A DNA stretch of 53,848 nucleotides from Chiloscyllium plagiosum (taxonomy: Eukaryota), in contig NC_057719.1 of assembly GCF_004010195.1 (NCBI RefSeq), forward strand, positions 20,428,362 through 20,482,209. The letters run 5' to 3'. Both the position numbers and the translations under genes were made by a program. The first letter of the stretch is position 1. Every line of letters begins with the position of its first letter. Shown here one piece after another: positions 15,826 through 53,209 of the stretch. The notes beneath the pieces are model-generated. The model was not told the origin of the DNA. It worked only from the letters and a program-made list of their open reading frames with translations, and searched no databases.

Positions 15826-15950
15826 AATGACAGATACTGTAAATCAGAAACAAAAGTAGAAAATCCTGGAAAAGCTCAGCAGGTCTGGCAGCATCTGTGG
15901 AGAGTAATCAGAATTAATGTTTCAGGTCGAGTGAACCTTCCTCAGAACTC
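15826..15950 (-). mobile_element. Solo PLE-terminus short element with HHR motif (15911-15950)
   Basis: Reverse complement resembles 11949-12086. HHR reads GAGTT CTGAGGA A GGTTC-ACTC-GACCT GAAA CA TT AATTC. Confidence 0.8.
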
Positions 15951-17242
15951 AAATGCTCCATTATATCTGGAAGAACTGTAATCTCATGAATTTCGTTTCT
16001 GGAGTACAGCTTCCCTGTTGAAACTGACACATTCTTTTGCAGTATCCTGAATTGTCAAACAAGGCAATTTCCTTTTGACTGTGTCCTGAATCTCTATCCT
16101 ATCTCATTGATGGCATCCATGGACTCATATGCACCACAATCTCAATCGGTCACAGTAGATATTATGCTTAATTTGCCAGTAAATCTGTGTTATTATGTAA
16201 AAGGAATAATGTTTGCTGTTGGATCAAAATGAAGGTATTGTAGGCCAGTAGCTCTGATGACCATTTGAATGTGGTGTAATATGCTTATAAAGTTATCGGA
16301 TAACTTACTTCATTTGATTTGTTTATGAATTTTTTAGGTTTAGTACATTGTTCTAAAAATTAATAAGTTCTGATTTTGATGTCTGCTATATTGTCATTTT
16401 TAACAATTTTACAGAAAATCCAGTTGAACATAATTTGGTTTACACCAGTCAGTGTTAAAATAGACTGACCGTGAACAGGGACCTGCCATCTTGGGTTTCA
16501 CATTCATCAGCTTATAACCCCTTGGCTCTAAGGTTTGCTGTTTAGTTGAAAGACTGCACTGTTGCTACAACTGACATCTAATTTAAATAGAAGATCATAT
16601 AACTCATGGCCAGCATACCTCCCTGCTTTCCCTTGCCCCTACTCTGCTCAGTTACAGCCCAGCGAAATTCCGGGTTAATGTTAAACTCACCAGGATGAAA
16701 TACTTGTCAGTTAAATTGGCAAAGGACATGCATATTTACCTCCTCGCCTTTCAGTGAAGCTGTAACAATCATGTTAGATCAACAATCTCCATCATACCCT
16801 ACATATCTTCCCTTATCATGCCAGCATAGAGAAAAGGGCATTGATTCTTGTGACCAGCATGTTCTCATTTGTCTGCTTTGATCTGAGGGACTTGTTTAAA
16901 TGAGGATGAATATTTCTAACTTCCTTAAATTATCAATATATTTGAAGTTAGCCACTGACCTAAATCTTAAGCAGAAACAGTTTCCAGACTCCAGAAGCTA
17001 ATTTCTGACTTTCTCACTTTTTTTCATCAATTTCACTTGTTTATTTATACCCAAATCTAATGAATGCAGGAGAATTTGCATAGAAATCCTCTAGTTTGTC
17101 TGCTTTAATTTTGATGCCAGAATATGAGAGTATAGAATAACTTCTGAAAAGATATCATATCAGGTGATGTACCCTACTCTAACTTCTTGAAACCTGCATT
17201 CTTTACTACCGAGGTTAACTCATTCTGCTTTCCATCAATGCT

Positions 17243-17550
17243 GCACGGTGGCTCAGTGGTTAGCACTGCTGCTTCACAGCACCAGGGTCCCAGGTTTGAT
17301 TCCAGCCTTGGGCAACTGTGTGGAGTTTGCACATTCTCCCCATGTCTGCATGGGTTTCCACTGGGTGCTCCGGTTTCCTCTCAGTTCAAAGATGTGCAGT
17401 TTAGGTGAACTAAATTGTCCATGGTGCTAGGTACATTAGTCAGAGGGAAATTAATCTGGGTGGGTTACTGTTCGGAGGGTCGGTGTGAACTGGTTGGGCC
17501 AAAGGGCCTGTTTCCACACTGTAGGGAATCTAATCTAATCTAATCTAAAA
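17243..17550 (+). mobile_element. HE1-type V-SINE
   Basis: Same A/B boxes, V-domain and (TAATC)n tail as 5224-5533. Confidence 0.92.
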
Positions 17551-17857
17551 CTTTACTTCAACTTGTTCTATTACATAGGACTGTTTACTTGTGCATGGGG
17601 ATTTGCAGCATTGGTGAGACCAACATGTTCTTGACTGTAATAAAGCAGAAAAAGACTCATCACAGTTCAAAAGGAAAATCTGTCTCTGCTAAACTCTGAC
17701 TTAAATTCTCCAGAGTCACAGAGTCCATTAATCTGCAGTTATCAATAATGGAAGTATCAGTGGATTATACTGATTTAATAACGCATGGTTTTTTTTCTTC
17801 CAATAATTTACGTTGTTCTGAAGTTAAAATAATTTTCAAAAGCTTAAAGAACTTTGT

Positions 17858-19668
17858 CTAAATTGGAGAAAGGCCAATTTTGATGGTATTAAGCAAGAAC
17901 TTTCAAAAGCTGATTGGGCAGATGTTCGCAGTAAAGGGACGGCTGGAAAATGGGAAGCCTTCAGAAATGAAATAACGACAATCCAGAGAAAGTATGTTCC
18001 TGTTAGGGTGAAAGGAAAGGCTGGTAGCTATAGGGAATGCTGGATGACTAAAGAAATTGAGGGTTTGGTTAAGAGAAAGGAGGAAACATATGTAAGGCAT
18101 AGACAGGATAGATCGAGTGAATCCTTAGAAGAGTATAAAGGCAGTAGGAGTATACTTAAGAGGGAAATCAGGAGGGCAAACAGGGGACATGAGATACCTC
18201 TGGCAAAGAGAAGTAAGGAGAATCCAAAGGACTTTTATAAATACATTAAGGACAAAAGGGTAACTAGGGAGAGAATGGGGCCGCTCAAAGATCAGCAAGG
18301 CAGCCGATATATAGAGCCACAGGAGACAAGGGAGATACTAAACGAATATTTTGCATCAGTATTTACTGTGGAAAAGGATATGGAAGACATAGAATGTCGG
18401 GAAATAGACGGTGACATCTTGAAAAATGTCCATATTACAGAGGAGAAGGTGTTGGATGTCTTGAAACGCATAAAAGTGGATAAATCCCCAGGACCTGATC
18501 AGGTGTATCCTAGAACTCTGTGGGAAGCTAGGGAAGTAATTGCTGGGCCTCTTGCTGAAATATTTGTATCATCAATAGTCACAGGTGAGGTGCCACAAGA
18601 CTGGTGGTTGGCTAACATGGTGTCACTGTTTAAGAAGGGTGGTAAGGACAAGCCAGGGAACTATAGACTGGTGAGCCTGATGTGGTCCACTAGTTTGCAT
18701 CATTTATATAAATGATTTAGATTGAACATAGGAGGTATAGGTAGTAAGTTTGCAGATGACACCAAAATTGGAGGTGTAGTGGACAGCGAAGAAGAAGGTT
18801 ACCTCAGATTACAACAGGATCTTGATCAGATGGGCCAATGGGCTGAGAAGTGGCAGATGGAATTCAATTCAGATAAATGCGTGGTGCTGCATTTTGGGAA
18901 AACAAATCTTAGCAGGATTTATATACTTAATGGTAAGGTCCTGGGAGTGTTGCTGAACAAAGAGACCTTGGAGTTCAGGTTCATAGCTCCTTGAAAGTGG
19001 AGTCGCAGGTAGATAGGATAGTGAAGAAGGTGTTTGGTATGCTTTCCTTTATCGGTCAGAGTATTGAGTACAGGAGTTGGGTGGTTATGTTGCGGCTGTA
19101 TAGGACATTGGTTCGGCCACTGTTGGAATATTATGTGCAATTCAAGTGTCCTTCCTATTGGAAAGATATTGTAAAACCTGAAATGGTTCAGAAAAGATTT
19201 ACAAGGATGTTGCCAAGGTTGGAAGATTTGAGCTATAGGGAGAGACTGAACAGGCTGGGGCTGTTTTCCCTGGAGCGTCGGAGGCTGAGGAGTGACCTTA
19301 CAGAGGTTTACAAAATTATGAGGGGCATGGATAGGATAAATAGACAAGGTCTTTTCCTTGGGATGGGGGAGTCCAGAACTAGAGGGCATTGGTTTAGGGT
19401 GAGAGGAGAAAGATATAAAAGGGACCAAAGGGGCCACTTTTTCATGCAGCAGGTGGTACGCCCTATGGAATGAGCTGCCAGAGGAAGTAGTGGAGGCTGG
19501 TACAATTACAACATTTAAAAGGCATTTGGATGGGTATATGAATAGGAAGGGTTTGGAGGGTTACGGGTCGGGTGCTGGCAGGTTGGACTAGATTGGTTTG
19601 GGATATCTGGCATTGACGGGTTGGACCGAAGGGTCTGCTTCTATGCTGTACATCTCTATGACTCTATG
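17858..19668 (+). mobile_element. CR1 LINE, 5'-truncated, with a large internal deletion near 18683
   Basis: ORFs 18008-18715 (KENPKDFYKYIK..KSPGPDQVYPRTL..KPGNYRLVSL), 18722-18994 (SKFADDTK) and 18991-19473; tail ctctatgactctatg. Confidence 0.95.
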
Positions 19669-21584
19669 GCTCCCTGACTCTATATATTGGTTCTTTCACA
19701 CTTTGGTGAGCTATAACTGTACTCCCAATTGCATGCAAAAATATTTTACTCAGCTTCTGATCTAGGATCTAGCTTGGAATCAATTCTAACATCTTCAAAA
19801 TAGCTTTCTCCAAGATGTCCAATTCATTTGAAATCTGCCTGGTGGTATGCTTTTTGCTGCCAGGTCTTCCTACTGTGATTATTTATTTTCTTTACCTTTT
19901 AGCTCTTTAGTGTAGCATTGCTGCTACTACTCTACTCAAAGCACTTCTCATTCTTTTGTAGTCAAAGTAGAAATTCCTGTCCTCAATGAATAAAACAAAT
20001 GATTTCCAGCTTTTGCAGAGACTTTCTTGATGAATTGTGCTAAGTGCGCTACTCTACACTGTCGCTACTGGAGCAAATGTTGCCACTCTTCAGTGCCATC
20101 ACACCTCCATGATGCCATTGCCACCATGAATCCTCGCTCCCTCAACAATTCAGACACTACCAATGCCACCGGGTACTGCACCAGCCCAAATGCAACTCCT
20201 CTGCTGCCAAGAATCTGGGCCCACCTCAAGCGATGCAGCCAGGGTCTCATACCAGGCCCAAAATCACCTCCTCCGCCACCTCCATGAATCTGTAATGGAC
20301 TGAGATGCTACCAGGAATCCATGTAAGATGTGTCCCATTCCTTTAAAGGTTTTTCTCAGGGGAATTCCACAGTCTGTGGCTGCAACTCCTCATGAAATCT
20401 GATGATGCTTCATCAAATGCTGTGAGTAGAGATATGTGCATCATGTCAATGTTACTTACTTACAGCAGTGTGGTGTGCAGCCTTATTTAGACAAGGAATC
20501 TTCCCGTAATCTGCAGTCTGGTGGGTGACATGTTGTCACAATTTGCAACTGATAATAAAAGACACTAATTTGATTCAGCATTTTAAGCGTTAATGTTAAT
20601 TTAAATACCTTGTCATTAGCAAAAAGCACTGAATCTGACATGGGATTAGTGAGGTATAAAGGAATTTGACAGCATTGAAGTCTAATGGTAAAATAATACA
20701 GCCTTTCTGTAGTTACTGGGAGACCATATATGTTAAATATATTGATTAGTGTCACATAACTCACATGGAAGGATTATTGTGTGACATCTGTCACATTTAA
20801 ATTTTGTTTGAACAATGTAATTATATTTCACTGACCAAATCATACTCTTGGCTAAATCAATACAACATGACATTCATAACTTCTCCGTAATCATGCATTT
20901 TTCTATTAATTTATGAAAAAGCAAACATTTCTTAGACTTATTGGTTTAAAATGGATTTTGCATATTTGCACAATATTTGTGGCTTAAACATATTTTGCTC
21001 CTTTTAAAAACAGAGAAAAGCATGGAATGAGAAAAGGCATTTTGTTCGATTGAGCCCGCATCTGTCACAAACTCTGTAAGATACCACAAAATTGATGCTG
21101 AACTGTGGATTTATCCATTATGGAAAATCAATCATTTTTCTCTTTGACCCTGAAGTTTGCTGAAGAGAACTGCGATGGTAGAGTTCTTTTGGTTCTCTTT
21201 TTTAAAGATGGTTCTGACTATCTCTCCACATCTCCACAGTCAAATTAATCCGAATTTAATCCAGCAGACGTTCAGCAGCTGGGGCTTTGGCAGATTCCAA
21301 CCACCACCACCACCTTCAGTGACACTCGACAATGGGGGTTAGAACATACATCCACAGCTTAGACTTTTTGGAAGAGAGATTTTGCAAATCAAAGAAAACT
21401 GGCCGCAGCAAGGATAAGAACACAAGTTGCTTGACTGGAATCAGACTGTACAATAATTAGAGAGTGAGGTCACATGGAGTGTGGTTGAAAACATATTGGA
21501 TTTACGTACAGAAGACACAGTGAGTTGATTCTTACATTTAATTTTTGGTTGAAGTGTCAGCTGTGGCATGTTCCATGGAGGGTA

Positions 21585-22047
21585 GGTTTGGAATGGTAGG
21601 CCTAACATACGATGAACAGTTGAGGATCCTGGGATTGTATTCATTAGAGTTGAGGAGGTTGAAGGAAGATCCAATAGAAATTTACAAGATAATACATGGC
21701 TTAGATAGGGTGGATACTGGGAAGTTGCTTCCTTTAGGTGGAGAGACTAGGACCCATGGGCACAGCCTTAGAATTGGAGGGGGTAAATTTAGAATGGAAA
21801 TGAGGAGACATTTCTTCAGCCAGAGAATGGTGGCCCTGTGGAATTCATTGCCGCGGAGTGCAGTTGAGGCCGGGACGTTAAATGTCTTCAAGGCAGAGAT
21901 TGATAAATTCTTAATCTCACAGGGAATTAAGGGCTACAGGGAGAGTGCAGGTAAGTGGAGTTGAAATGCCCATCAGTTATGATTAAATGGTGAAGTGAAC
22001 TCCATGGGCCGAATGATCTTATTTCCACTCCGATATCTTATGGTCCT
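21585..22047 (+). mobile_element. CR1 3' fragment
   Basis: LTYDEQLRILGLYSLELRRL..IEIYKI..RHFFSQRMVALWNSLP..FKAEIDKFL; tail tcttatggtc. Confidence 0.92.
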
Positions 22048-23344
22048 TTAGGTTTTTTGCCGCAAAGTGCAATAATATCACTCTATGTATTTTGCCAAAC
22101 TTGTCTCATTAGCTACCTATCCTGGTCAATGGCATCCAATTAGCCAAGTACTAGACCCACACTACCATTTGGCAGTCCCAGAACAACTCACCACTTACCT
22201 CATATCTGCTGAAAGATTGTCATCCCTGGCACTTTCACCATATTTAAAAGTCAGCTGTTCACCCAGACCAGCATGGCAATCCACCATTGCCTCTCACCAG
22301 CAGCAGAATGGTACTACATACTCCTCACAGCACATAGCTGGCATGGTCAACATTTCCTCACACATACAATCCCATTATATTGCCCGAGTCACAGCTTAAC
22401 CCTATGGTCAGATAGCTTACCTGTCCCCAGCTAGATCCCATCCGAACATTCTCTCCTAGTCACCATTCCTCTGTCCCCAGTACCCACTGGATGTTTGTTT
22501 CTTGCCACTGTCCAGTAAGGGAACAAGCGATTGGAAAATTCCAAAGAAAAACTTTTATTTACAAGCAGGAAGACCAAATGCAAACAAAATGAATAGTGGT
22601 TGCAGTTGGCAGCCAAAACGCAAATCAAATGTTCATATGATGACCAATTATTAATTGACAGTCCGTAAGAGTGTGCTCCACGCAGCTATCATCTACTGGG
22701 ACCTGTGTGGCTTAAAGCACTCAATGCAGCTGAGTCCATCCATGCATAAGGAGAGTTTCCTCTTCCACAACATCCACTCCCTCCTCATTGAAAAGCTGCT
22801 TGGTTGTAGCAGTAGAAGTGTTTCATCAATTGCCCTATTGTCTGCTCCTCTATGGCATTGGTCAAAGTGTGAGTGACATTGTATCTGAACCCTGCATTAG
22901 TCAGGCAATTGTGTAATGTTGCCACAAGCTATAGACACTGTGGGTATCCTTTGTCCCCTGGTAACCAGACTCGGAAGAATGTAGCTGGACACTCAAACAC
23001 ACCAACTGCACAAGCATACTCCAGGATGTCATGACAGCTGCCAGGTTAGTGGGTGCACACCTCCAGAAAATGGTGATGGTGATTACAGATCACCTGAACA
23101 TTAACCAAATGGAATGCCTTCCTACTGATGAATTCTGAAGCCTCGAGATATTGCTCTCTCAGTGTCATGGTGCTCAGTCAATGGCACATTGCCCGTGGGG
23201 GAAGCCAGGTATGGGTCCCCAAATCTTACTGGCTGGACTGAAGCACTGACCTCATCATGGGGGATTGAAAATTTCCAAAGTTGCACGACCCCTGAGAGAA
23301 AATAATTTCCCTCATCGCAATCCTTCACCCATTAAAACTGTGTG

Positions 23345-23815
23345 CCTGACTTCTGGATAACCCCCTTTTCCACATGCACATTCTCAAGGCCATTCAGGAT
23401 CTTATAAACTCCAATCATGTCATCCTGCTCCTCAGAACGCTAGTGAAAACAAGGCCAGTGTGTACAATCTTCTCTCAGGAGGCAACCCATTCAGTCCAGG
23501 AATCAATCCAATAAACCTTTTCCAGACTGCCTCCTATTTGTTTATATATTTTCTTAAATAAGGAGATAAAAACTGGACACAGTGATTAAGATGTAGTCTC
23601 AACAATGTCCTGGATCACTCAAACATAATATTCTTACTTTTATGTTCAATTCCTCTTCTAATAAAGGGCAATATCCCATTCATTTTTCTGATGATATACT
23701 GAACCTCCATAGTAACCTTTAGTGACTCAGAATAGCTAGATCCCTCCACTCCTGGAAGTTCTGCAATCATTCTAAATTTAAGTAATATTCTGTTTTATTT
23801 CTCATTCTTCTTGCC
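23345..23815 (-). mobile_element. Old CR1 RT C-terminal fragment
   Basis: ggagataaaaactggacacagtg (reverse of the YCVQFWSP region), ataaacctttccagactgcctcc, aacaaggccagt. Confidence 0.7.
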
Positions 23816-23821
23816 AAAGTG

Positions 23822-24028
23822 CCATGTTTCCTCTGGTGCTCCAGTTTTCTCCCACAGTCCAAAGCTGTGCTAAATTGCCATAGTGTTCAGAGATGTGTAG
23901 GTTGGGTATGTTAGCGGCAGGGTTACTGTAATGGAGTCTGGGTGGTGCGTCTGGGTGGGATGCTCTTCGGAGTATCGATTTGAACTCGACAGGCTGAATG
24001 GTCTTCTTCCACACTGTAAGGATCCTAT
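23822..24028 (+). mobile_element. HE1-type SINE, 3' half
   Basis: gtttcctctggtgctccagttttctcccacagtccaaag...gctaaattgcc...tccacactgtaagg. Confidence 0.78.
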
Positions 24029-29234: not shown

Positions 29235-29333
29235 ATTAGATTAGATTAGATTAGATTACTTACAGTGTGGAAACAGGCCCTTCGGCCCAACAAGTCCACA
29301 CCAACCCACCGAAACGCAACCCACCAGACCCAT
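29235..29333 (-). mobile_element. HE1 SINE 3' tail fragment
   Basis: (TTAGA)n followed by cttacagtgtggaaacaggcccttcggcccaacaagtccacacc, the reverse complement of 5440-5527. Confidence 0.88.
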
Positions 29334-29334
29334 T

Positions 29335-30570: not shown

Positions 30571-30706
30571 CCCATTCGGGCAGAGTCTGTGCCTCCAAAC
30601 TGGAATAATCAGCCACCACAGAACTCCCCTCAGTAAAATTTGTAGGCTATAAATTTCCAACTCCTGGTCATTCTTGCCTTCATCTGAAATAAGATACAAA
30701 TTTTTA

Positions 30707-30974
30707 TTAGATTCCCTAGAGTATGAAAACAGGCCCTTCGACTCAACAACTGCATACCAACCCTCTGAAGAGTAACCCGTTCCTATATTTACCTTTGACT
30801 CATACACCTAACACTATGGGCAACTTAGCATGGCCAATTCACCTTTGGACAGTGGGAGGAAACCCACACAGTCACAGGGAGAATGTGCAAACACAGTCAG
30901 TCACCCGAGGCAGGAATTGAACCCGGGTCCCTGGTGCTGTGAGGCAGCAGTGCTAACCACTGAGCCACCGTGCC
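30707..30974 (-). mobile_element. HE1-type V-SINE
   Basis: Reverse head ggaattgaacccgggtccctggtgctgtgaggcagcagtgctaaccactgagccaccgtgcc. Confidence 0.9.
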
Positions 30975-32149
30975 TCCTTTGCAAAGGTCCCCTCCTGTCA
31001 TAATACAAGCTAATGATGTTAAGATAATGATAAGTACAGTCCCTTTTTATGTGCCTTTGCTAAAGCAGATTGAGCAAATAGAGGATTGGTTGCATTATGA
31101 TCTTTGCCAGAAGGATGTCGAGCTATCTGCTTGTACTTCCATTGCTTCCTGCCTCTAAAATAGATTCTTGTCTCACTTACCACATTGGGGAGTGGGAGTG
31201 GGGAGGCTGTGAGGAAATCAAGAGTTTTGCCAGCTGGCATTACCGGTAGTACACTCTGTAACATTCCTACTGCTAAAACTGCTGTTGCCCAGCTCCCTTG
31301 GCTGCAATAAGGCACCCATATGGGTGAAGTTGAAGGTTGGTTTTACACCTCCCTGAATATTATCATTCATTGATTTTAATGGAAAAGAAAATCATGTAAG
31401 CTGTCAAGCTAGCATTCAATTCTATTTCTGAGTTACATTTAAAAAAACTCATTGAGGTCTAAAAATGACCTTCCATCTGATCCCATTGGGGGATCTGGGT
31501 TAAAATTACTTCATACGTCTTTGAAGTCTATATCTCTCTGTGAGTGATGAGAACGTACTAGAAATCAATGGGTAAAACACACAGAGAGTCGACAAGCATA
31601 GATATGATAAAATACAAGTGGCTGCAAGACAAGCTCAAATGATAAGACAGTGCAAAGACTTCAGCTGCCAATCATTCTTTTCTACACACTGCAATATTAG
31701 ATCTTAGAATACATCAATATTGTGAGTAAAAGTCTTCTTATTCCCATTCATAGTCACATAGATTTGTCTCTCTTATTGATTGAGAAGATAATGATCCTCT
31801 CAAATTTTCACAATAGAGGCTACAAAGTGATCTATAAGATAAAAATGTGGCATTATGCAACATTGTTTTCTTAACAGTAGACATACCTTCTGATCAAAGT
31901 TATTTGAAATGGGTCAACACAATTGTTTAATGATCTCTGCTGATAATCATTTTATATAACAAGTTTCACATCAAAGCAGTCCCTTCTTTGATTTGAAACT
32001 TTAAGAAACAGAGTGGGTCAGTAAGAACTTACAAAAATCTTTATACTTGGCAGTTGCAGCCTCTTTAGGGAACATGGATATATTTGAGACAGTTCTGCTT
32101 TGAGGTTGCATTTTCCATTTTGCCTGATAAAATGCAAGAAACGTTCATC

Positions 32150-33151: not shown

Positions 33152-33446
33152 TCACAGCACCAGGGTCCCAGATTCGATTCCAGCCTTGGGCGACTGTCTG
33201 TGTCAAAGGAAATTCTCCCCGTTTGTACATTCTTCCGGTGTCTGCGTGGGTTTCCTCTGGGTGCTCCGGTTTCCTCCTACAGTCCAAAGGTGTGCAGGTC
33301 AGGTGAATTGGCCGTGCTAAATTGCCAATAGTGTAAGGTGCATTAGTCAGAGGGAAATGGGTCTGGGTGGGTTACTCTTCGGAGGGTCTGTGTGGTCTGG
33401 TTGGGCTGAAGGGCCTGTTTCTACACTGTAGGGAATCTAATCAAAA
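33152..33446 (+). mobile_element. HE1-type V-SINE, 5'-clipped
   Basis: B box, V-domain and gggctgaagggcctgttt tail. Confidence 0.88.
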
Positions 33447-33647: not shown

Positions 33648-33740
33648 ACAGAAATTGCTGGGAAAACTCAGCAGATCTGGCAACATCTATGGGGAGAAAA
33701 CAGAGTTAACACTTCAGATCCAGTGATCCTTCTTTAGAAC
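33648..33740 (-). mobile_element. Solo PLE-terminus element with decayed HHR
   Basis: Minus strand reads GTT CTAAAGA A GGATC-ACTG-GATCT GAAG TG TT AAC, followed by an agatgttgccagatctgctgagttttcccagc tail. Confidence 0.7.
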
Positions 33741-33849
33741 ACATTCTAGCATTAAATAGTAGTAGATTCAGAAAGGAATATAATAAGTTTGGGACTATAC
33801 AAGATAAATATTTTAACAAAATTTAAACCTAATTAGCTATATCAGACAT

Positions 33850-38075: not shown

Positions 38076-38094
38076 GAAAAAAAACCTCTGAGAT

Positions 38095-41235: not shown

Positions 41236-42052
41236 TTTCATGTGAAAAACAGGAACTCCAATACAGCAGAACTCCTTCAGTGGAAGCCTTGATGTTCATG
41301 CTCAAGTCTTGGACTGAGTCTTGCACTCAACAACTTTCCAATTGTTAGGGGCAAGAGAACTATCAAATGAGCAAGAGTGGAAGCATTAATCCAATCGTGA
41401 GGCTTCAGCTGCTCTGTGGCACTTTGGTGAAATTCTACCACTTAAGTAAAGTAAAATTGTCAGCAAAATAAATCAAGCTTGTGGCAAAACTCAATTAACA
41501 TCATCATATCAACAAATATTTCTAAACAGCCAGTGGTGTTTTTGACATATACAGATACTAACCAATGAACCTGAATTAACATTTTATATGTCATATTCAA
41601 TATTTTACTTCCAATCTTTGTCATGGAGATTTCAATTCCCCTTCATTTGAATGCTAATTTCCCTTGCAAGGATCAGAGAACAATACAACTTGAATGCCAT
41701 TGTTTGTTACAGTGATGTGGTATAATAAGAAAGATTTGCCTCAATCTATGATGTACTTGCAATAAATTCAATTGTGTTTCTGATAATGCACTCAGATTCC
41801 CTCAGTAATTGCCCATGACAGTCAGGAGACATTGGCTTTACAGAATATTAACTTCAAAGAATAAATTAAGCTATCACAAATATAAAATGGGACATAAATT
41901 AAAGACAGTAAATACTATTCAAAATGAATCACTAAATGCCACATCCATAATAATGAAGCACAAACTTTTTAGTCACACTTGCCTTCTTGAATCCTTCGTT
42001 ATTTATCATCATTGTGGATTCATTAGCTATATTCCAACAAACTTTAAACTAA

Positions 42053-42192
42053 ATAAAAACCAAAAGAACTGCGGATACTGTAACTCAGAAATAAAAACAG
42101 AAGAGTCACCAGACTGGAAACGGTAACTCTGATTTCTCTTCACAGGTGTTGTCAGACCTGCTGAGCTTTTCCAGCAACTTCTGGTTTTGTTT
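42053..42192. mobile_element. Inverted-dimer PLE-terminus element with a 15-bp TSD
   Basis: Minus-oriented tail (aaaaccaaaagaactgcggatactg..cagaaataaaaacagaa) joined to a plus-oriented partial HHR and tail. CAAACTTTAAACTAA at 42038-42052 and 42193-42207. Confidence 0.8.
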
Positions 42193-42221
42193 CAAACTTT
42201 AAACTAATCTCACTATCACCA

Positions 42222-42262: not shown

Positions 42263-42291
42263 TTCAGTGGACTTGCATTCAATTCTGGTGT

Positions 42292-43068: not shown

Positions 43069-43160
43069 GAGTTCTGATGATGTAATTGATCTGAAATATT
43101 AACCCTAGGAGTCTCTGCGCAAATGTTGTTTGGTTTGCTCAGTGATTCTCAGACACTCCA
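43069..43160 (+). mobile_element. Old solo PLE-terminus element with HHR core
   Basis: GAGTT CTGATGA TGTAATTGATCT GAAA TA TT AACCC followed by a degenerate tail. Confidence 0.5.
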
Positions 43161-43511
43161 GTCTTAATGCAGACAGAGAGCATGGAGAGAATAGAGGCTT
43201 ACTGAGCAGTGGAATAAGCATTCATCACTCCTCACATTAGTCCATGGGAATATCTCAATTCTCAAAGATATTGTCTTGGTCAGCTTCAACATGCTGGGAA
43301 TTGAAAATGCTAATTTTATAACTTTGCATTTTCATTGAAACAATTTACCTACAAGGAATGCAAATTGACCTAGATCATAACCATGGTGGCTGTTGATGCT
43401 CCAACAACTTTCCCATTTACACTGCCTCTCTGCTTTATTTTTTATTTCCTTACTTGCCTGACCACAGCTACTTTCACTTTGTGCCATTCTGAATCTCCAC
43501 TGTTGTCCATC

Positions 43512-43852
43512 TAGATTAGATGATTAGATTAGGTTCCCTACAGTATGGAAACAGGCCATTCAGCCCAACAAGTTCGCAGTGCCCCTCCAAAGTGTAACCC
43601 ACCAAGACCCATTCCCCTACCCTATATTTACCCCTGACTAATGGACCTAACACTATGGGCAATTTAGCCTGGCCAATCCACCTGACTTGCACATCTTTGG
43701 ATTATGGGAGGTAACTGGAGCACCAGGAGGAAACCCACGTAGATATAGGGAGAATGTGCAAACTCCACATATACAGTTGCCTGAGGTTGGAATCAAACCT
43801 GGGTCCCTGGAGCTTTGAGGCAGCAGTGCTAACCACTGAGCCACTATGCTGT
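43512..43852 (-). mobile_element. HE1-type V-SINE
   Basis: Reverse complement of the full HE1 layout, with a TAATC-type tail at the left. Confidence 0.9.
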
Positions 43853-44034
43853 CCACTATGCATACATCTAATGAAATTCTAATTCTTTTTCCCTTCGTTT
43901 CAACCTTTCTTAACTCCGTACTAGCTTAAAACATTGCAGACTCTCTAACATTTTTCCAGTTCTAGTTGTCTTAACATCTCTACTTGGAAAAAAAGTAACA
44001 AGCTTTGATTAAAGAAATTACTTCAAGGTAACAA

Positions 44035-44715: not shown

Positions 44716-44725
44716 ACGACTTCGT

Positions 44726-44829
44726 GTTCTGAGGAAGGGTCACTGGACCCAAAACGTTAACTCTGATTTCACAGATGCTGCCAGACCTGCTGAGCTTTTC
44801 CAGTAATATCTGTTTTTTTGTTTCTGATT
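44726..44829 (+). mobile_element. Solo PLE-terminus element with HHR motif
   Basis: GTT CTGAGGA A GGGTC-ACTG-GACCC AAAA CG TT AAC (one CpG decay from GAAA), then cagatgctgccagacctgctgagcttttccag. Confidence 0.8.
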
Positions 44830-45244
44830 AACGCAGATTACGGATTTTTGGATTATGCTTGTTGAAGGCTTGTTCTTTCAGCCCCTGAACATTGCAATGG
44901 TAGTTCCTCAGGTTCATGTCTAAGACTGATCATTTTCAGTGGTCTCATTCATAATCGTCCTTGCAGCACAGAGTGGAAGGATCATGAATGTTTATTTCAC
45001 TGCAAGGTGCACTCTGGATTAGTACACATATATCCACCCTGCATCTTGGTGAAAATGTTAGTTAGGAAACAGATCAGCTGCAATTTCATTAAGTAGTTCG
45101 CATGTCAACTTGGCTATCTCAATATTGCACCGTTTCTGATCCATAGTGCTCAGATTCATAGGGGGGAGTGAATAAAAATAAAATAAATATTTCAAGTTAA
45201 ATGGCACTTTTTCTTCATGAGTTCAAGTGTCTTATTATCAATAT

Positions 45245-45380
45245 AGTTCTTTTGAAGTGATAGGAGCTGCAGAATGAAAGAAAACCTAGCAGTTAATTTG
45301 TGCAACAAGACTGTATAATCAACAATGTAATGGTGAGGTCATCTGTTTTAGTGTTGCTTGGCCAGAACACTAGAGAAACT
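45245..45380 (-). mobile_element. DeuSINE-like fragment
   Basis: ttttgaagtg..gcagttaatttgtgca..aacaatgtaatgg..atctgttttagtgttg..tggccagaacac..gagaaact. Confidence 0.55.
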
Positions 45381-46055
45381 TAGAATTAGAATTAGCTTTA
45401 TTGTCAAATATACACTTTGGGTACAAGTTTTTAAGTACAAATTTTTAGGGGAAAAAAATTAGAAAAATAAAGAAATAAAACTTCAGAATAATAGTCCTTC
45501 TAATCCAGTCCCTGTGGCAACTTGCCTTCGGTCAGTGCCAGGCTTCATCTCAAGTCCAGATGTCCACGTTGAGATCTCTCGGCAAGACACTGCCACTCCA
45601 GGCCTGCTGAGAGACTGCCACACCAGGCCTGGAGGATACCACACTGGGCCAGAAGACTACCACACTGGGCCAGGCCACTGAGAGACTGCCACACTAGGCC
45701 ACTGAGAGACTACCAACCAGACCACGGAAAGACTGCCACACTGTGCTACTGACAGACTGCCACATCAGTCCTGGAGACTGCCACACCATGCCGAGAGAGT
45801 GCCGCTCGGGGCCAGGGGACCGCCACACTGGGCCACCGAGAGATCACTGCGCCAAGCCATGAGACAGCAATGCCGGGCCACCAAGAGACCATAACGCCAG
45901 GACCAAACTGACACTGAGATTCTGAGTCCGTGCTGAGGCTGCGAGTTCAGGATATCACCAAGAAAAAAGAAGGAAAAAAGCACAAAAGAGAGAAGAAAGA
46001 AATGGATAGAGTTGGTGAGTTCCAACTGGAGAGTTCTACTTCACCACCATTTTGA
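45380..46055 (-). mobile_element. Probable non-autonomous retroelement carrying a minisatellite
   Basis: Minus strand starts CAAAATGGTGG (a decayed AAGATGGCGG-like start) and ends CAATAAAGCTAATTCTAATTCTAA (polyA signal plus microsatellite tail). Confidence 0.45.
45586..45905. repeat. Degenerate GC-rich minisatellite, unit about 20-24 bp
   Basis: Roughly 14 imperfect units of GAGACTGCCACACTGGGCCACT. Confidence 0.85.
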
Positions 46056-46167
46056 AATATTACAGGAAGGGAATTAAGTGAAGATGATGCCTGATGAACT
46101 TGACAGATTTTCTTTGAAGTCCTTAATGTTTGTTCAAAATGTTGTCGTGGATTCTTTAATGTTCAAT

Positions 46168-46322
46168 AAAGTGTGGTGCTGGAAGAAACACAATGGGTCA
46201 AGCAGTCCTGATGAAGCTTGAAACATCAACTTTCTTGTTCCTTCGATGCCTGACTTGTTATGCTTTTTCCAGCACCACAGTTTATCGACTCTGATTTCTC
46301 CAGCATCTGCAGTCCTCACTAT
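46168..46322. mobile_element. Inverted-dimer PLE-terminus element (second subfamily) with HHR core
   Basis: gtggtgctggaa..aa pairs with ttttccagcaccac. The centre reads CTGATGA AGCTT GAAA CA TC (46208-46227). Ends cagcatctgcagtcctcact. Confidence 0.72.
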
Positions 46323-48099
46323 CTGCTATGGATTATTTTTTATAAATAACAAGGAGGGTTCCATGTATCATCTGAAAATCTATTTCTCCATCAGTTCTTT
46401 TACCTTGACAGAAGCTCAAGGGTAAATCAGAAAATGTCATGATTTGGCCCCTAAGTGTTTCACTCTTGTTTTGTTTTGACTGTAAATGTCAGTGTGCTCT
46501 GAAACATAAATTATTTGGACTAGAAAGGACCAGGATATTTTAGATTTTGAGGCCATAGATCCAGAATTCATAAACTCTGCCCAGGATTCTGCCAGCATCC
46601 AGATGTAAACATCACCTTAGTTAAAAGGAATTGGCCTGCCTATAGGTCTTCCCGAGTCTTGAAAACAAACATGTTCATTCTGCAATTCCCCTTGCGAGTC
46701 TCATCTATTTTGACGGTTGATTTCACACTTGCAGATCGATTATCTGAGCTTTGAGTTTTGCTCCAAGTCTTTCAGTTTTGTGGGCATTGATCCTGAGCTT
46801 GCTTCTGTAGTTTTGGTATTTTTCTGATGAGGTTCACAAATCAACTTGCATCTCGAGGGCTGCAAGTCTCTCAAGGTGTTTTTGAAGTACTGTACGGCTG
46901 GCTTTTCCAGTTCATGGTTTGATGTGGTACGCTTGGATTCAGAGCCTGCCTTCTGCTGTCTGCTGCATGAGAGAGTAGGTTGCTTGTGGACTTTGCTGTG
47001 TCAGATATGCTGGTGGTTATTCAAAGCAAGCTTTCTATAGGAGGTTGATGGTTTTGGAAGACTTTAGTCAAGGCAAGCATATTAATCTGTGCAGACATCC
47101 AACTCTTAACAGTATCATTGAATCTGGAGGTGTGATAATGTAATAAAAGGTGTGTGATTTATACATATGTTATCATTTTTGGAGTTAACATTTCAAAATA
47201 GTGGCATATGGTTGTTGGTTATTTTTGGGAAATGAAATTTGGTTCAGATAGTCCTGTTGGAACAATGACCTAATCCTGCCTGTGACAGAGAGAAGGTGAC
47301 TATGAACCCCTGCAGTGTTAATGGAAAGTTGTTTATATTGATTTATGACAAGTAATATAGACATTTAGAATAATCGAGGAGTGATTAGAATTTAGCAAAT
47401 TCAGGGACTGAAGTTTTTTATAGTGGTTTGAAGGAAATCTGAACACAGTTAAAAGTACAGCTTCTCTCCTCGAAAATTGTATTAGACAGTTCAGGGAAAA
47501 CTCAGTCTTTTTAGTTAGAAACTGGTAATTTCTGATACTTGCAAACCAGAAATGCTTTGTTAGAAATCTATGAGGGATTAAAAATGAAGGAACTTTTAAG
47601 CTTTCAGTTTTGTGAACGTTTATGGAAGAAGACTTCACAGTTCACAGGAAAGAAACTGGAGTGAATTAGTTAAGTCAAACTTGAAGATTTGATATTGAGA
47701 TGTAATTTCTTCAGACTTGAATCTCTGGGATAGCTGGTGTCAGAAAGTCGGTTGAAAATTTGTTTTGCTGTGTGTTTTAAGTTATTTTTAAACTGTGTTC
47801 TATATCAAAATTGCTTTTTTTTATTGTTTTTTATCTTTTGAACAGTAAAATTCTATCTTGTTTGAAGAAATAGTGTAGCCTTTTGTGACTATGGTTTGGC
47901 AAATGAGCACCACATTCAACAACATTTCTATTAAAAAAAACAAGCATATGATCCCCCAAGACAGATTTTATTCTGTGATCTGATTTGATCATAGCATAAC
48001 TTCATTGCATAAAGTTAGCAGGAGTTTGGATGCTCTGGCCTTTCGCAGTGTTATCTCCCAGTGGTGAGAGTTCAGAACCATTAGTCTTTTGCCTAACAC

Positions 48100-49035
48100 A
48101 TTTCAGTTGCTTCATCAATGACCTTCCCACGATCAGGGGTGTATTTTGCTGATGACTGCATAATGTTCAGCATTATTTGTAACTCCTCGGATACTGAAGC
48201 AGTCCATGTTCAAGTGCAACAAGATCTGGACAATATCCAGGTTTGGGCTGACAAGTCTCAAGTGACATTCGTGCCACACAAATGCCAGGTCATGACCATC
48301 ACCAATAAAAGACTATCTAACTACAGCCCCTTGACATTAGTGGTGTTACAATCAATTAATCCCCAATATTAACCTCCTAGAGGTGATCATTGGTCAGAAA
48401 CTCAACTGGACACACCACTTAAACTGAATAGTTACAAGAGAGGTCAGAGGCTAGGAATACTGTGGTGAGTAACTCACCTGCTGACTCTCCAAAGTCTGTC
48501 CACAATCTACAAGTTACAAGTCTGGACAGTGATGTACTAGTCCCCACTTGCCTGAATGAGTGCATCTCCAACAATGCTCAGAAAGCTTGACACCATCCAG
48601 GACAAAGCAGCTGGCTTGATTGTCGCTACATCCACAAGCATCCACTCCCTCCATCCCCGAGACTCAGTAACAACAGTGTGCACTATCTACAAGATGCACT
48701 GCAGAATTCACTAAAGATCCTCAGACAGCACCTTCCAAATCCACAGCCACTTCCAGCTAGAAGGAAAAGAGCAGCAGATGCATGGGAACATGACCATGAA
48801 CATTAAATTCCCCTCCAAACCACTCACCATACTAACTTGGAAGGATATTGCTGTTTCTTCACCATTGCTGGGTCAAAATCTTGGAATTCCCTCCCTAATA
48901 GCATTGTGGGTCCACCCCCAGCAGGTGGACTGTAGAGGTTCAAGAAGACAGCTCATCACCACCTTCCCAAGGGCATCTAGGGATGGACAATAAACGTTGG
49001 CCGGCCAGCAACACCCACATCCCATGAATTAACAA
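48100..49035 (+). mobile_element. CR1/L2-superclade LINE RT fragment to 3' end, distinct family
   Basis: FADDC..QQDLDNIQVWADKSQVTFVPHKCQVMTI; tail ctagggatggacaataaacgttggccggccagcaacacccacatcccatgaat. Confidence 0.88.
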
Positions 49036-49204
49036 TTGTAAAAAAAACTTGAATTTTAAGAATTTTACATACGCTTTTAGTCCAGCAGGTTTACTCTGGA
49101 TAGGAATAACAAAGGCAAGTTGAACAATGGGATATGCCCAATGTTCTTTATTAAAGCAAAGAGGAGTACAACGTACTGCAGTAGCGGTAATACATCACAA
49201 GTTC

Positions 49205-49625
49205 ATATGGAAGAGGAGCAGGCCACTTAGACCAATCAGCCTGTTCCAACACTCAATGAGATCGTGACTGATCTGAGACTGAACTCCATATACCTGCCTT
49301 TGGTCCCAGATTCTTTAATATCTTTGCTTGACAAAAATATATCTGTCTCAGGTTTATAATTAACAACTGATCCTCCATCTACTGGCATTTATGAGTTCCA
49401 AATATTTACCAGCCTTTGTGTGTAGAAGTGCTTCCTAACATCTTTCCTTAACAGTCTGGCACTAATTCTCAGACTATGCTCTCTTGTTCTAGAGTCCCCA
49501 ACTAGTGGAAGTTGTGTATTTTATTTATCAATACTTTTCCTGTTAATATCTCGTGCATTTCAATCAGATCACCCCTTAACCTTCTAACTTCCAGAGGAAA
49601 TAGGCCTAATTTGCATAATGTCTAA
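49205..49625 (-). mobile_element. CR1 3' fragment
   Basis: ggagcaggccacttag..cagcctgttcc tail, gagttccaaa..cctttgtgtgtagaagtg, tcaatcagatcaccccttaaccttcta (reverse of RRLRGDLIE). Confidence 0.8.
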
Positions 49626-49924
49626 TTGGTATAATGTTTGATCAATTACTAATTAGGACTTGCTTGTTTTCCTTGGAAAGAGGCTAATCTCTTGGTTTTA
49701 ATGAACTTTACATTCATCTTAGCCTGCTCAGCTGAGACCATTTATATGTCATCCAATAAATTGTATGATATTGACACAGTACAATTCTATGATTAAGTGC
49801 ACTTTGTTTAGCTGATTAAATAGTCACATTATCAGATTAAATTCATTGTTCTTATTTTAAAACATGACTCCAGACTTTCAGAGCTCCTATGACAATTTGA
49901 TGCATTACTGTTGAGTTTAAGGTA

Positions 49925-50072
49925 AATAAAGTGACTACAGTCTTACCAGAACACAGGGCTGCTATCTCATTTGAGAGAGACTGATGACGTTTGACCTGAG
50001 GATCACCATGCCTCATTCAAGGAGAGAGGTGAAAAAGAGAGTCTTTCAAAATAATCTCAGTCGGTGTGGGAA
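49925..50072 (-). mobile_element. SINE family C, reverse copy
   Basis: Reverse-complement similarity to 42350-42491. Confidence 0.6.
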
Positions 50073-51090
50073 CAATAGTAACTTAAATGCGTCCACATTT
50101 CTTAAGACACAGAAACATTATGATCAGTGACCTTACTAATCATTGGGTCATCATGTGATCATTAACTTCTCCAATAAGGCAAACATTTCTTTTGTTTCCT
50201 TCATTTCATTTTATTTTGACTAAACCAGTAAATTTTAGGTTAATACTTACATTGACCATTGAGGTAAAGATTATTGCAGAGAATCATGCATCACTTCTTA
50301 TACCAGTAGAATAGTAAGAGCCAAATGGCTGCAGGTTCTGGTTTGGCATGTGGAAAATGTTTTGTTTTTTTCTGAAAATCCTCCATACCATCTTCAAAAT
50401 GGAAGACCAGATGTCGCCTTCAGTTATGTGTTTGGCAGCACCAGTTTGACATTTGAGGGATAATTGCACTCGTATGCATAATATGTTTATCTGTTAATGC
50501 TCTAATCCAATAATTGTCAACTTAAAATTAAAACAAAATTATTACGTGTTAGGAAGTTGGAGGTGAGTTTATCCTTTTTTTTAAAAATCTAGCACTCCAG
50601 AAAACCATTTCACCAGAGGTAAAAGTTTGTCACAAAATTTGCAATGACGAATAAGTGAATGCTGGCGGAGTAAATTAAAATAACACAAATATTATGAAAT
50701 AATGAATAATATCAAAACATGTTTATATTCACAACTGAGCTGAAGTAAACATTTACAAATAGATGTTGTGCAATGAGTTCCTGGATCAACCAAACTGGCA
50801 TATTGGTAACAGAAATCCAGTGTGGCTAAGTGAGTCAAAACCTGATAAATAAAAATAAGAAAAGTATTCCTGGCTGATACCTGGTGAGAGAAATAATGAA
50901 CTCCATTAGCTATTAGCTGACAGCTACATGAACAATTCTGCAGGCTATCTAACAAATTTGAGAGCACTGATTTTACAATCCAGTTACAATTAGGCTCACT
51001 ACAGTGAGACTAGCATGTGGATGCTTTTGGATACCAGAGTTCAAACAAAATGCGGAGGACCCAGGGAGCATACAGTATGCATTTGCTCAG

Positions 51091-51100
51091 ATGACGTCAG
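51091..51100. promoter_or_regulatory. Full palindromic CRE (TGACGTCA), candidate only
   Basis: ATGACGTCAG with its CpG retained, in unique sequence. Function is unverified. Confidence 0.25.
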
Positions 51101-51398
51101 GGGTGCAAAACTCCTGCTTTGATGAGAGACGTGAGGTAATAAGAGCTTTCTAAAGAAGCAGCAAAGGAAAGGGGATGTTTAATTGAGCTTTCAGAGACTA
51201 AGAGAGGTTTTGGTAGAATGAACATTGACAGATTTTTCCTCTTGTTACTTTTCTATCTTTCATATTCTTCCCTTAGAGAATAGTTTGAACAGGAGAATGA
51301 TTCACAGGCTAATTAACTGTCTGATAGACTGCAACATAAACTCTTCTTCCACGTCTGTGTCTATCTTTACACCAACCAAAAGGGAGGTTAGAGCTGGT

Positions 51399-51570
51399 AC
51401 AAAAACAAAAATTGCTGGAGAAAGTCAACAGTTCTGAAGATGGGTCCCTGAGATTGAAATGTTAACTCTTGTTTCTTTTCATAGATGCTGCCAGACCTGT
51501 TGAGTTTCTCCACCAATTTCAGTTTTGTTTCAAATTTCTAGCATATTGCAGTTCGTTGTTTTACTTTAGG
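51399..51570. mobile_element. Inverted-dimer PLE-terminus element with HHR motif
   Basis: aaaacaaaaattgctggagaaa (minus tail), then GTT CTGAAGA TGGGTCCCTGAGATT GAAA TG TT AAC (51431-51466) and the plus tail agatgctgccagacctgttgag. Confidence 0.75.
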
Positions 51571-51879
51571 TCAGTGTGGGATGATGCTGGGATCTTATTC
51601 TACTGGCTTCTAAAACTTAAATGTAAACAGAGGACTTCAGCTTCCACAGATGTACTGATGACCAATATCAAGAAGTATCAGCTGTGGCTCAGTTGGTGTG
51701 TTAGTCTCTGATTTGCAAAGCCCTACATTCCAGTCCCACTCCCAGGCTTGGGAGTTGGTTTAGCTGGATGGCTGGTTTATAATGTGGAGTGATACCAACA
51801 GCATGGATTCAATTCCTGCCTAGAACTGAGATGGCCATTTTTGATTGGGAAATACACAATGTGTGCTGGGTTGATGTAG

Positions 51880-52337
51880 AATATAGAACATAGAAGAATG
51901 CAGCGCAGTACAGGCCCTTTGGCCCTCGATGTTGCACCAATCCAAGCCCACCTAACCTACACTAGCCACTATCCTCCATATGCCTATCCAATGCCCGCTT
52001 AAATGCCCATAAAGAGGGAGAGTCCACCACTGCTACTGGCAGGGCATTCCACGAACTCACGAAGTGCCTCAGCCTTTCCTCATACGATCTTCCTATCATA
52101 CCAGGCAACATCCTGGTAAACCTCCTCTGCACCCGTTCCAGTGCCTCCACATCCTTCCTATAGTACGGCGACCAAAACTGCACACAATACTCCAGATGCG
52201 GCCGCACCAGAGTCTTATACAACTGCAACATGATCTCAGGACTCCGGAACTCAATTCCTCTACCAATAAAAGCCAGTACGCCATATGCCTTCTTCACCGC
52301 ACTATTTACCTGGGTGGCAACTTTCAAAGATCTGTGT
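51880..52337 (-). mobile_element. Young CR1 3' fragment with an internal deletion
   Basis: Uninterrupted LYKTLVRPHLEYCVQFWSPYYRKDVEALERVQRRFTRMLPG, then a jump at RLRH/FVSSWNALP. CpG-rich. TTCTATG tail. Confidence 0.93.
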
Positions 52338-52381
52338 ATATTAAACTTGGATTGGAGCCAAGCTTAATTTTAGCGCTAAAA

Positions 52382-52665
52382 TAAAATAATGAACAGTGGA
52401 TGCTGGAAATCTGAAACATAAACAGAAAGTGATGGAGAAACTCAGCAGATCTGGCAGCATTTGCAGAGAGAGAGGAACAGAGTTAATGCTTCATGTCCAG
52501 TGACCCTTTGTCATAACTGATAGCAGTTGAGAAAGGGTGTCATTTATTCTGATGACAGCTAACTCACTCCCCATCATCAGCAGAAATAAACCCTTTTCCC
52601 AGCCGCTGATGAATGTTCATTAGACGAGAAATGCTACTTCTGTTTCTTCCTTTTCAGATTCCAGG
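52382..52665. mobile_element. Inverted pair of PLE termini, each with a decayed HHR
   Basis: Minus copy 52382-52520 (cagttatgacaaagggtcactggacatgaagcattaactc). Plus copy from CTGATGA at 52606..GAAA. The central arms gaaagggtg..tttatt.ctgatga / tcatcag..aaataaacccttttc are inverted. Confidence 0.65.
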
Positions 52666-52835
52666 TGTCAAAACTATTTCTTCAAGGCCTGGAAAATAAG
52701 GATTTCTGTACCAGGACTGATAAAACTGATCTTGACCACTGGAACTCTGGGATGCCAACTCTCTAGCATGGAATAGTTCCGACATACACTTTGATGCGAA
52801 ATGAGCAAATCAGATAGACCTCAATCCAAAAAGTC

Positions 52836-52920
52836 AAAAGTGAGGACTGCAGATGCTGGAAACCAGAGTCTAAATTAGAGTGGTGCTGGAAAAACACAGC
52901 AGGTCAGGCAGCATCCGAGG
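52836..52920 (-). mobile_element. PLE-terminus tail fragment (second subfamily)
   Basis: gtgaggactgcagatgctgg..gtggtgctggaaaaacacagcaggtcaggcagcatcc. Confidence 0.7.
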
Positions 52921-53087
52921 GTGAGGAGGAGGAAGCTGCCTCTGGTCAGTGGAGCCAGTACTCACTTTTTGGCCTGACAATGTATAGACCGGTTGATGAA
53001 AAAAGACCAAGGATCATCTAGTTCAGCTTCTCTCATCCTGATAGTCCATGATACAATAATTATGGGATAGTTGACTAACCTTGGAGA

Positions 53088-53209
53088 ACGTGAGGACTGC
53101 AGATGCTGAGATCAGAGTCAAAAGTGTGGTGCTGAAAAAGCGCAGCAGGTCAGGCAGCATCCTAGGAGCAGGAGAATTAATGTTTCAGGCATGAGCTATT
53201 CATCAGGAA
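53088..53209 (-). mobile_element. Solo PLE-terminus element with HHR core
   Basis: Minus strand reads TTC CTGATGA ATAGCTCATGCCT GAAA CA TT AATT, then the tail ggatgctgcctgacctgctgcgctttt. Confidence 0.75.

Follow-up and report, generated by a model that had tools for sequence, protein, structure and literature searches.

Short hammerhead-and-tail insertions in Chiloscyllium plagiosum as probable run-off copies of Penelope-like element leaders

Introduction

Minimal hammerhead ribozymes followed by a short tail are scattered through a 53,848-nucleotide (nt) stretch of the Chiloscyllium plagiosum genome (RefSeq assembly GCF_004010195.1, contig NC_057719.1, positions 20,428,362 to 20,482,209, forward strand; the whole stretch is referred to here as the window), which also contains a broken Penelope-like element (PLE) related to them. 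These units, about 92-135 nt in length, are insertions of the hammerhead-plus-tail leader of several PLE families, flanked by target-site duplications (TSDs), and they were probably formed by reverse transcription running off the 5' end of uncut PLE mRNA, an end that likely corresponds to the transcription start. They are single insertions copied from uncut RNA, with a fixed 5' edge, two 3' ends, many independent origins and a promoter-like spacing between the edge and an upstream box. They are likely by-products of the copying of the parent and not a separate mobile family, and the solo copies, which lack the upstream TATA box, are likely dead ends.

For endonuclease-bearing (EN+) PLEs of the Neptune type, the literature describes pseudo-long terminal repeats (pLTRs), an inverted 5'-truncated arm and a tail of 30-40 bp (PMC8557442, PMC3846280), and in rotifers a TATA box plus an initiator (Inr) in the pLTR (PMC3846280). 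The completion of the transposition cycle and the role of the hammerhead are open questions in PLEs. Dispersed minimal hammerheads occurring singly or in opposite-strand pairs, inverted pLTRs with a one-sided tail, the TATA box and initiator of the pLTR and retrozymes derived from PLEs are already known; what is new here is the mechanistic detail. No report of a fixed 5' edge at helix I or of a run-off origin of solos was found in a literature search that most subscription journals and the Repbase reports lay outside. An earlier reading of the window from its letters alone (the sequence-only reading) had proposed either a family resembling short interspersed elements (SINEs) or retrozymes, mobilised in trans by the PLE reverse transcriptase (RT), possibly from uncleaved or circular RNA, or stalling of the RT at the ribozyme fold. 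A boundary set by the transcription start, which is missing from that reading, fits best.

Results

A fixed 5' edge

Units were collected from 140 unselected 10-kb stretches (1.346 Mb without N of a 3.56-Gb genome), which yielded 339 units, or 252 per Mb; extrapolated from this 1.346 Mb, the genome is estimated to hold about 0.9 million. Together with 10 units of the window the collection comprises 349 units, 260 of them anchorable; after 91 inverted units and 3 without a clean upstream sequence had been set aside, 166 were left (158 from the random sample), and 105 rows were used for the tree. Families are designated A, B, B2 and C, which are labels of this analysis, A being the family of the window PLE. 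The pattern-selected family sets consist of the matches listed first, mostly from contigs C1-C2 for A and B2, and an intact core was required. Numbering runs upstream from C3, the first base of the core, so that -4 is 11949 of the window. Breakpoints were located by a parent-by-core method accompanied by simulations; a method taking the best of 56 library copies inflated chance extensions.

Among the 158 non-inverted anchored copies of the random sample, similarity to the parent is lost 0-12 nt upstream of the core in 92, within the next 37 nt (13-49 nt upstream) in 13, and further upstream in 53. Simulated uniform truncation gave a flat profile and a simulated fixed break at -4 was recovered. 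The claim of the sequence-only reading that the breakpoints are not random is thus borne out, and the plot of breakpoints against the parent that it had suggested shows a peak at the edge of helix I instead of a smooth spread along the untranslated region (UTR). Its caveat, that the low complexity of the upstream UTR makes similarity hard to judge, is answered by composition: the pyrimidine fraction of the flanks is 0.50 in solos, which is the background value, vs 0.75 in long copies, so that the solo flanks are not unrecognised UTRs.

The position of the edge can be resolved to single bases. Exact genome-wide counts in family A are 928, 656 and 164 with 0, 4 and 6 upstream bases, a loss of 50% with each base from -4 to -6; a break lying precisely at -4 would predict a 6-base count of about 185. 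The count with 13 upstream bases (51) was left unused, the poly-T run being variable in length. In B2, a young family, the counts are 11888, 8383, 5563, 4237 and 3682 with 0, 4, 6, 12 and 29 upstream bases, the losses per base over the successive intervals being 8.4, 18.5, 4.4 and 0.8%. The 53 family A matches listed comprise 10 long copies, 25 solos and 18 inverted arms, and among the 43 short copies of this list the A at -4 is kept in 32 and the parental T at -5 in 9 (p=1e-6). Among the family C matches listed (8 long, 28 solo, 14 inverted), -4 is kept in 26/42 and -5 in 20/42.

The predicted cleavage site leaves no trace in this profile: starts there amount to 1.0 per nt, vs 0.6-2.0 in the neighbouring bins. 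The inserted copies span the cut site and start 32-35 nt ahead of it, and the fixed edge shows that they derive from uncut RNA, which upholds the earlier suggestion of an uncleaved template.

In 4 of the 25 family A "solos" among the matches listed, internal PLE sequence abuts the edge without anything in between, which is what a jump off the end of a template should produce. Joins of this kind, with internal PLE sequence in the same orientation and an edge at -4 to -2, are seen in loci L176, L178, L290, L295, L328, L335 and L343 and are likely template jumps from the RNA end.

Insertion marks and lineage

A TSD score of at least 8 was obtained for 26 of 85 random solos (null 3%) and, among the matches listed, for 10/25, 8/9 and 11/28 solos of the pattern-selected families (null 4%). 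The duplications are 8-20 bp long, with clean junctions of TSD then AGCT. The solos are therefore insertion events and not later deletions, in agreement with the earlier proposal that PLE machinery mobilised them as separate insertions.

The tree comprises 59 solos and 46 long copies; along it the solo and long labels change 27 times, at least 13 of these changes being forced by well-supported branches, and two sets of identical rows mix solo and long copies. The majority sequences of solo and long copies are equal in A and B2 and one column apart in C. The separate diagnostic lineage expected of a SINE was not found, the tree being interleaved and some solo and long rows identical. As to an internal promoter for RNA polymerase III in a head derived from tRNA, 7SL or 5S RNA, an Rfam scan of the window gave no match at E<=1, the hammerheads included, and the head of the unit is the hammerhead itself. 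None of the 85 solos has an upstream flank of 40 nt in common with another copy. Head-to-tail arrays of the 90-140-nt unit are absent among the 339 units, where only 9 same-strand neighbour pairs lie less than 300 nt apart, with variable gaps of 16-238 nt, and Tandem Repeats Finder detected no array of the unit in the window. The interleaving of solos with long copies, the lack of short-unit arrays and the lack of a solo lineage leave the earlier notion of an independent SINE- or retrozyme-like family mostly unsupported, and with it that of a circular template.

Tandem units of a different kind occur in family B2 (L264, L271, L323-L326, L341-L343, L347-L348; e.g. G000:C1:16162851-16163430 and C1:26522065-26522420). 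They comprise units of 205-224 nt in direct tandem and mini-elements measuring 210, 268 and 320 nt, internally deleted and 98-100% alike, and each consists of hammerhead, tail and the start of the open reading frame (ORF) joined to upstream UTR. The extra segment has 369 exact matches vs 11888 cores, and a 224-nt spacing was found on six contigs among the first 100 of these 369 matches. By their structure, these 205-320-nt tandems would be classed as retrozyme-like; they are a small minority distinct from the 90-140-nt units, and to that extent they speak for a part of the earlier proposal.

In composite B2 insertions (L261, L263, L265, L270, L276-L279, L208, L221), a short-ended module is followed by a host-like flank, 66 to >1000 nt in length, that they share with 100% identity. 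Three of them (L261, L263, L265) have the same inverted junction and TSDs of 14-15 bp, one side showing a long end and the opposite side a short one. This suggests a non-autonomous source locus copied in trans, perhaps with two RNAs per insertion.

Head-to-head doublets

About one third of the units in the random sample (119/339) are arranged head-to-head; the other 220 are not. Fifty of the 55 random doublets combine one long-tail with one short-tail arm (27.5 expected, p=1e-10), and the same pairing holds in 111/126 doublets over all fetched loci. A TSD score of at least 9, mostly from duplications of 10-18 bp, was found in 32 of the 55 (null 0.25%). As in EN+ PLEs, an arm is inverted and the tail is on one side only. 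The junctions vary by locus, which indicates that each doublet arose separately. Small doublets were compared for arms of different subfamilies, which would point to two templates. In young doublets the arms are concordant in 26 of 28 cases, the two flagged pairs looking like alignment slips, and owing to this concordance twin priming is indistinguishable from fold-back.

Promoter-like signals at the edge

General consensus patterns were employed for the TATA box (TATAWAWR) and the initiator. Among the matches listed, the best TATAWAWR match within the last 100 nt starts 27-34 nt before the A in 10/10 long copies of family A, 7/8 of family C and 3.8/7 of family B2, and it does so in 27.8/42 random long copies; uniform placement would give 0.9, 0.7, 0.6 and 3.7, respectively. 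Three divergent families, with the edge sequences TTAGCTT, TCAGTTC and TCATTCC, have the cliff at an A that resembles an initiator, and a TATA-like box precedes it by 31 nt. The edge is sharp in the family with a perfect TATA, and about 29% of the short copies extend 2 nt further (chance 6%) in B2, where the box is weak. In copies continuing past the tail, the module is the 5' leader of an ORF, with the ATG 162 nt after C3 and at least 500 codons open in L322. The 5' edge, exact to the base and repeated in hundreds to thousands of copies of each family, is a prediction of where transcription starts, and we infer that it is a start site of RNA polymerase II (Pol II).

At L337:1572, in the single-cell poly(A) run X20, 32 reads connect to a poly(T) stretch close to the short 3' end of B2, with AATAAA just upstream; this may be one expressed locus using AATAAA as its poly(A) signal.

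The parent element and its copies in the window

The window PLE, all of whose parts lie on the plus strand, comprises the following features.

10000..11563, +, broken PLE ORF remnant, RT then GIY-YIG endonuclease, frameshifted (Pfam, translations)
11564..11948, +, pyrimidine-rich 3' UTR or upstream pLTR part, family A, common to 40 scored genomic copies
11918..11925, +, TATA-like box 31 nt before 11949; the family form is TATAAATA, with one change in the window copy
11949..11987, +, minimal hammerhead of type I with the U3-A8 variant of the core, recognised by its core and helices I and II
11988..12082, +, tail, whose 3' ends fall into two clusters, short at about 12045-12056 and long at about 12082

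Pfam places the RT at 10000-10551 and GIY-YIG at 11255-11563, in that order. The scores (RVT_1, E=0.001; GIY-YIG, E=0.008) are each under the curated cut-offs because the copy is broken; relatives are 87-93% identical. As in Neptune-type PLEs, a cysteine-rich linker between RT and endonuclease is visible in the translations across the frameshift, and the element may belong to the Neptune clade. It shares with EN+ PLEs the combination of RT and GIY-YIG and the minimal type I hammerhead in the pLTR. The terminal module also stands 5' of the ORF in family B2, the family in which this was checked, in the order hammerhead, tail, ORF ATG. The 5' strand of helix I begins at A11949, the start point of the short copies and the putative +1 of transcription, and cleavage is predicted after 11983.

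The family A core TTGACAA was considered as a product of decay, an interpretation that was dropped, the variant being fixed in 928 copies and matching the published U3-A8 variant. RNA cofolding gave no active hammerhead dimer, a result that was not used. The most conserved word, GATGCTGCC (window 12004-12072, all families), opens a short upstream ORF, of 42 codons in B2; in family A it is preceded by a pyrimidine tract and a CAG resembling a splice acceptor.

A profile made from the units detected 10 units in the window vs 0 in the reversed sequence used as a control. Besides the PLE end at 11949-12082, they include those at 15826, 33648, 44726, 46205, 51431 and 53088. The copies and related features are the following.

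15820..15950, -, true solo, family C, long tail, starting at A (15949) plus one extra G; 12-bp TSD at 15808-15819 and 15951-15962
33648..33742, -, solo, family C-like, short end, beginning 3 nt ahead of the core; TSD not found
42038..42207, +, head-to-head doublet of an inverted long-tail remnant and a short arm; 15-bp TSDs at 42038-42052 and 42193-42207; absent from the sequence-only list
43069..43105, +, decayed hammerhead-like core, 37 nt, without tail; family membership unconfirmed
44726..44829, +, solo, family C, short end, beginning 3 nt ahead of the core; TSD not found
46170..46322, +, family B unit at 46205-46322 (long tail, helix II partly deleted) with an inverted-arm remnant upstream
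51402..51569, +, doublet of a long arm at 51430-51569 starting at A and an inverted short-arm remnant at 51402-51436
52376..52550, -, unit with about 37 nt of upstream UTR and an AATAAAT box, not a solo; absent from the sequence-only list
52837..52930, -, family B unit truncated downstream of the hammerhead; absent from the sequence-only list
53087..53209, -, solo, family B, long tail, beginning about 3 nt ahead of the core; TSD not found

The sequence-only reading had described seven short solos made of hammerhead plus tail and homologous to the end of the window PLE. Six of the seven have this composition; the copy at 43069 is tail-less and is missed by the profile even at E<=10. Those at 15826, 33648, 44726 and 53088 are indeed solos, and those at 46205 and 51431 have the remnant of an inverted second arm upstream. 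As had been stated, similarity begins within a few nt of the core, the six copies starting 0-4 nt ahead of the CUGAnGA-type core, and the predicted cut site lies inside all six that the profile confirmed. The homology to the window PLE is real but indirect: the copies are 74-85% identical to its end, vs 86-92% inside its own family, and so derive from sister PLE families, for which reason the comparison had to use their own parent families.

Discussion

If the boundary is a transcription start, the units would arise as follows. PLE mRNA would start at the A and carry the module twice, as the 5' leader and in the 3' pLTR. The PLE RT would prime on the 5' copy of the module in its own mRNA, still uncut, and run off the RNA 5' end after about 95 or 130 nt, leaving a stub that resembles a strong-stop product; priming on the 3' copy would yield the ordinary long, randomly truncated copies. 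A doublet would represent two run-off products joined at their ends, one per 3' site, or a single product folded back. Retroviral minus-strand strong-stop DNA is a short product that covers the stretch between a primer site within a terminally repeated RNA and the 5' end of this RNA. The likeness is an analogy only; the PLE stub, unlike the retroviral product, would be primed by nicked target DNA and stay in the genome, with no tRNA primer and no RNase H step shown.

A more far-reaching proposal, which we put forward tentatively and hold to be rather less probable than not, is that the stubs, several hundred thousand in the genome, are fossil strong-stop products marking the first base of the hammerhead as the PLE transcription start, that the ribozyme is both the mRNA 5' end and a decapping switch instead of a maker of templates, and that doublets reflect a staggered break of which a PLE dimer primes the two ends, using two fixed sites in the RNA and in some cases two different RNAs. 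If true, PLEs would have a two-ended insertion cycle unlike the target-primed reverse transcription of LINEs, and inverted pLTRs and the one-sided tail would be accounted for; the strict long/short pairing of the doublets makes two-ended priming a testable model. Where genomes of this kind show very large numbers of "solo hammerheads" or "monomeric retrozymes", these likely represent by-products of PLEs rather than a family of their own.

Several observations weigh against a transcription start or against the by-product interpretation. In all three families the edge coincides exactly with the 5' boundary of helix I (4 bp), a position that trimming to the fold would give as well. The family B box, TTTATCT, is a weak TATA match, the family A initiator has one mismatch, and in about 30% of cores the last 4 bases are not all present. 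Copies with an additional G at -5, the expected mark of a copied cap, are not in excess (25/108, p=0.40), and the reads of run X20 lie on both strands without a pile-up of starts and are uninformative for the start site; run X21 contributed no reads, and no joints of circular RNA are listed for these poly(A) data. In Drosophila, the Penelope start lies about 120 nt before helix I, where an intron ends (PMC4209133, PMC2377424). Solo and long labels are mildly clustered on the tree (27 changes vs a shuffled mean of 33.9; 3/500 as low), and the nearest relative of the 59 solos is a solo in 28 cases, a long copy in 16 and tied in 15; such clustering fits families differing in their solo fraction, and a lineage of solos is absent. 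For four of the copies listed in the window, TSDs were not found.

Among the alternatives, the one that deserves most attention, unlikely as it is, is that the template gets its 5' end from processing, through 5'-to-3' trimming to a protein-bound hammerhead or poly(A)-type cleavage via the A/T box, followed by RT run-off. TATAAA is also a variant of the poly(A) signal, and the coincidence with helix I in A, B2 and C and the absence of a cap-G excess are compatible with processing. Yet the 31-nt spacing to the box is kept although the intervening sequence differs among families, cleavage after the A would remove the A that 32 of the 43 short copies among the matches listed retain, and the edge varies in sharpness with the quality of the TATA, at the same helix I length (4 bp) in A and B2. 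It is improbable that the RT primes on the 3' pLTR and stalls or jumps at the ribozyme fold, or that the endonuclease nicks an intermediate there. Within helix II, at profile columns 17-23, starts are mildly in excess (2.0 per nt), which could be taken for stalling, but the RT copies RNA 3' to 5', so that the fold has already been passed at the main stop, and the 3' side of the fold has only about 1 start per nt; stalling, the other proposal of the sequence-only reading, is therefore not supported. Nicking could draw on the preference of the anole enzyme for ATT, reported in PMC11167929 and present at the family B edge, but families A and C have no ATT there.

An independent family amplified in trans from its own linear or circular RNA, a reading we regard as already largely refuted, is given slightly less weight still. 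TSDs, very high copy number, the weak clustering of solos and the genuine tandem mini-elements of B2 speak in its favor. The short unit forms no arrays, however, solos are identical to long copies and have no lineage of their own, none of the 85 has a 40-nt upstream flank in common with any other copy, a ribozyme-made circle would have no end at helix I, and the tandem class is both longer and rare. Recombination between the two terminal modules of full-length insertions, in the manner of solo LTRs, has been proposed for rotifer solo pLTRs (PMC3846280) and would preserve TSDs. It is very improbable here: it needs a comparable number of full-length precursors, and copies extending beyond the tail amount to about 3% of cores, most of them with internal deletions; it also leaves head-to-head doublets unexplained and still requires an RNA starting at the A. 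Least credible of all is a 3' splice site at the edge, as in Drosophila Penelope, with stubs copied from spliced RNA. Families A and C have a pyrimidine tract and AG at the edge and the D. virilis intron ends at helix I (PMC4209133), but the AG is retained in short copies, contrary to this explanation, no common first exon is seen in them and family B lacks the AG.

The comparison with known systems places the run-off interpretation in context. The elements resemble EN+ PLEs of the Neptune type in RT with C-terminal GIY-YIG, TATA and initiator in the pLTR, head-to-head arms, a one-arm tail and TSDs; unlike those described, most insertions here are leader only, with a fixed 5' edge and an estimated 0.9 million units, whereas in the published accounts solo pLTRs are attributed to recombination and truncation is described as having no fixed point (PMC8557442, PMC3846280). 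In metazoan PLEs, minimal type I hammerheads (Cervera and De la Pena 2014) likewise have a long helix II, a short helix I, a palindromic helix III and the U3-A8 variant and are, as here, mostly single or in opposite-strand pairs, "probably related to truncated PLEs"; that work proposed cleaved, circular templates and mapped no boundaries, whereas the copies here span the cut site (PMC4209133). In vitro, anole Poseidon (Frangieh et al. 2024) primes internally at two sites 30-40 nt apart near the ORF start, extends both target strands and uses predominantly uncut RNA, with a predicted dimer, and shorter 5' templates give shorter products, all of which is close to the proposal made here; it belongs to a different clade, and its ORF starts inside the hammerhead vs about 160 nt after it here (PMC11167929). 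Animal non-LTR retrozymes are, like the units, non-coding, hammerhead-bearing and derived from PLE pLTRs, and the rare B2 tandems fit them by structure (PMC7229834; bioRxiv 10.64898/2026.07.22.740005). By definition, retrozymes are tandemly repeated units of 150-450 bp, whose hammerheads are typically canonical and whose RNA is typically circular (PMC7229834; bioRxiv 10.64898/2026.07.22.740005), whereas the 90-140-nt units are monomers or inverted pairs, shorter than this range, with minimal instead of canonical hammerheads.

Other repeats in the window

A large inverted repeat occupies 6299-7737, where 6299-6708 pairs with 7324-7737 at 95%, with an inner direct repeat; one arm holds a hammerhead-like motif, CTGATGA...GAAAC, at 6368 (minus strand), unlike those of the PLE families. 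At 14070-14866, two tandem copies of a 398-bp unit are 98% alike, representing a recent duplication or an assembly artefact. A second dispersed family of about 300 bp, 67-94% alike and probably a SINE, is found at 5215-5528, 17243-17548, 29235-29334, 30706-30977, 33152-33445 and 43512-43861. A 340-bp repeat, 92% alike, at 17857-18193 and 53512-53848 lies inside an 885-nt open frame without a Pfam match, and a degenerate minisatellite with a 21-24-bp period spans 45585-45843.

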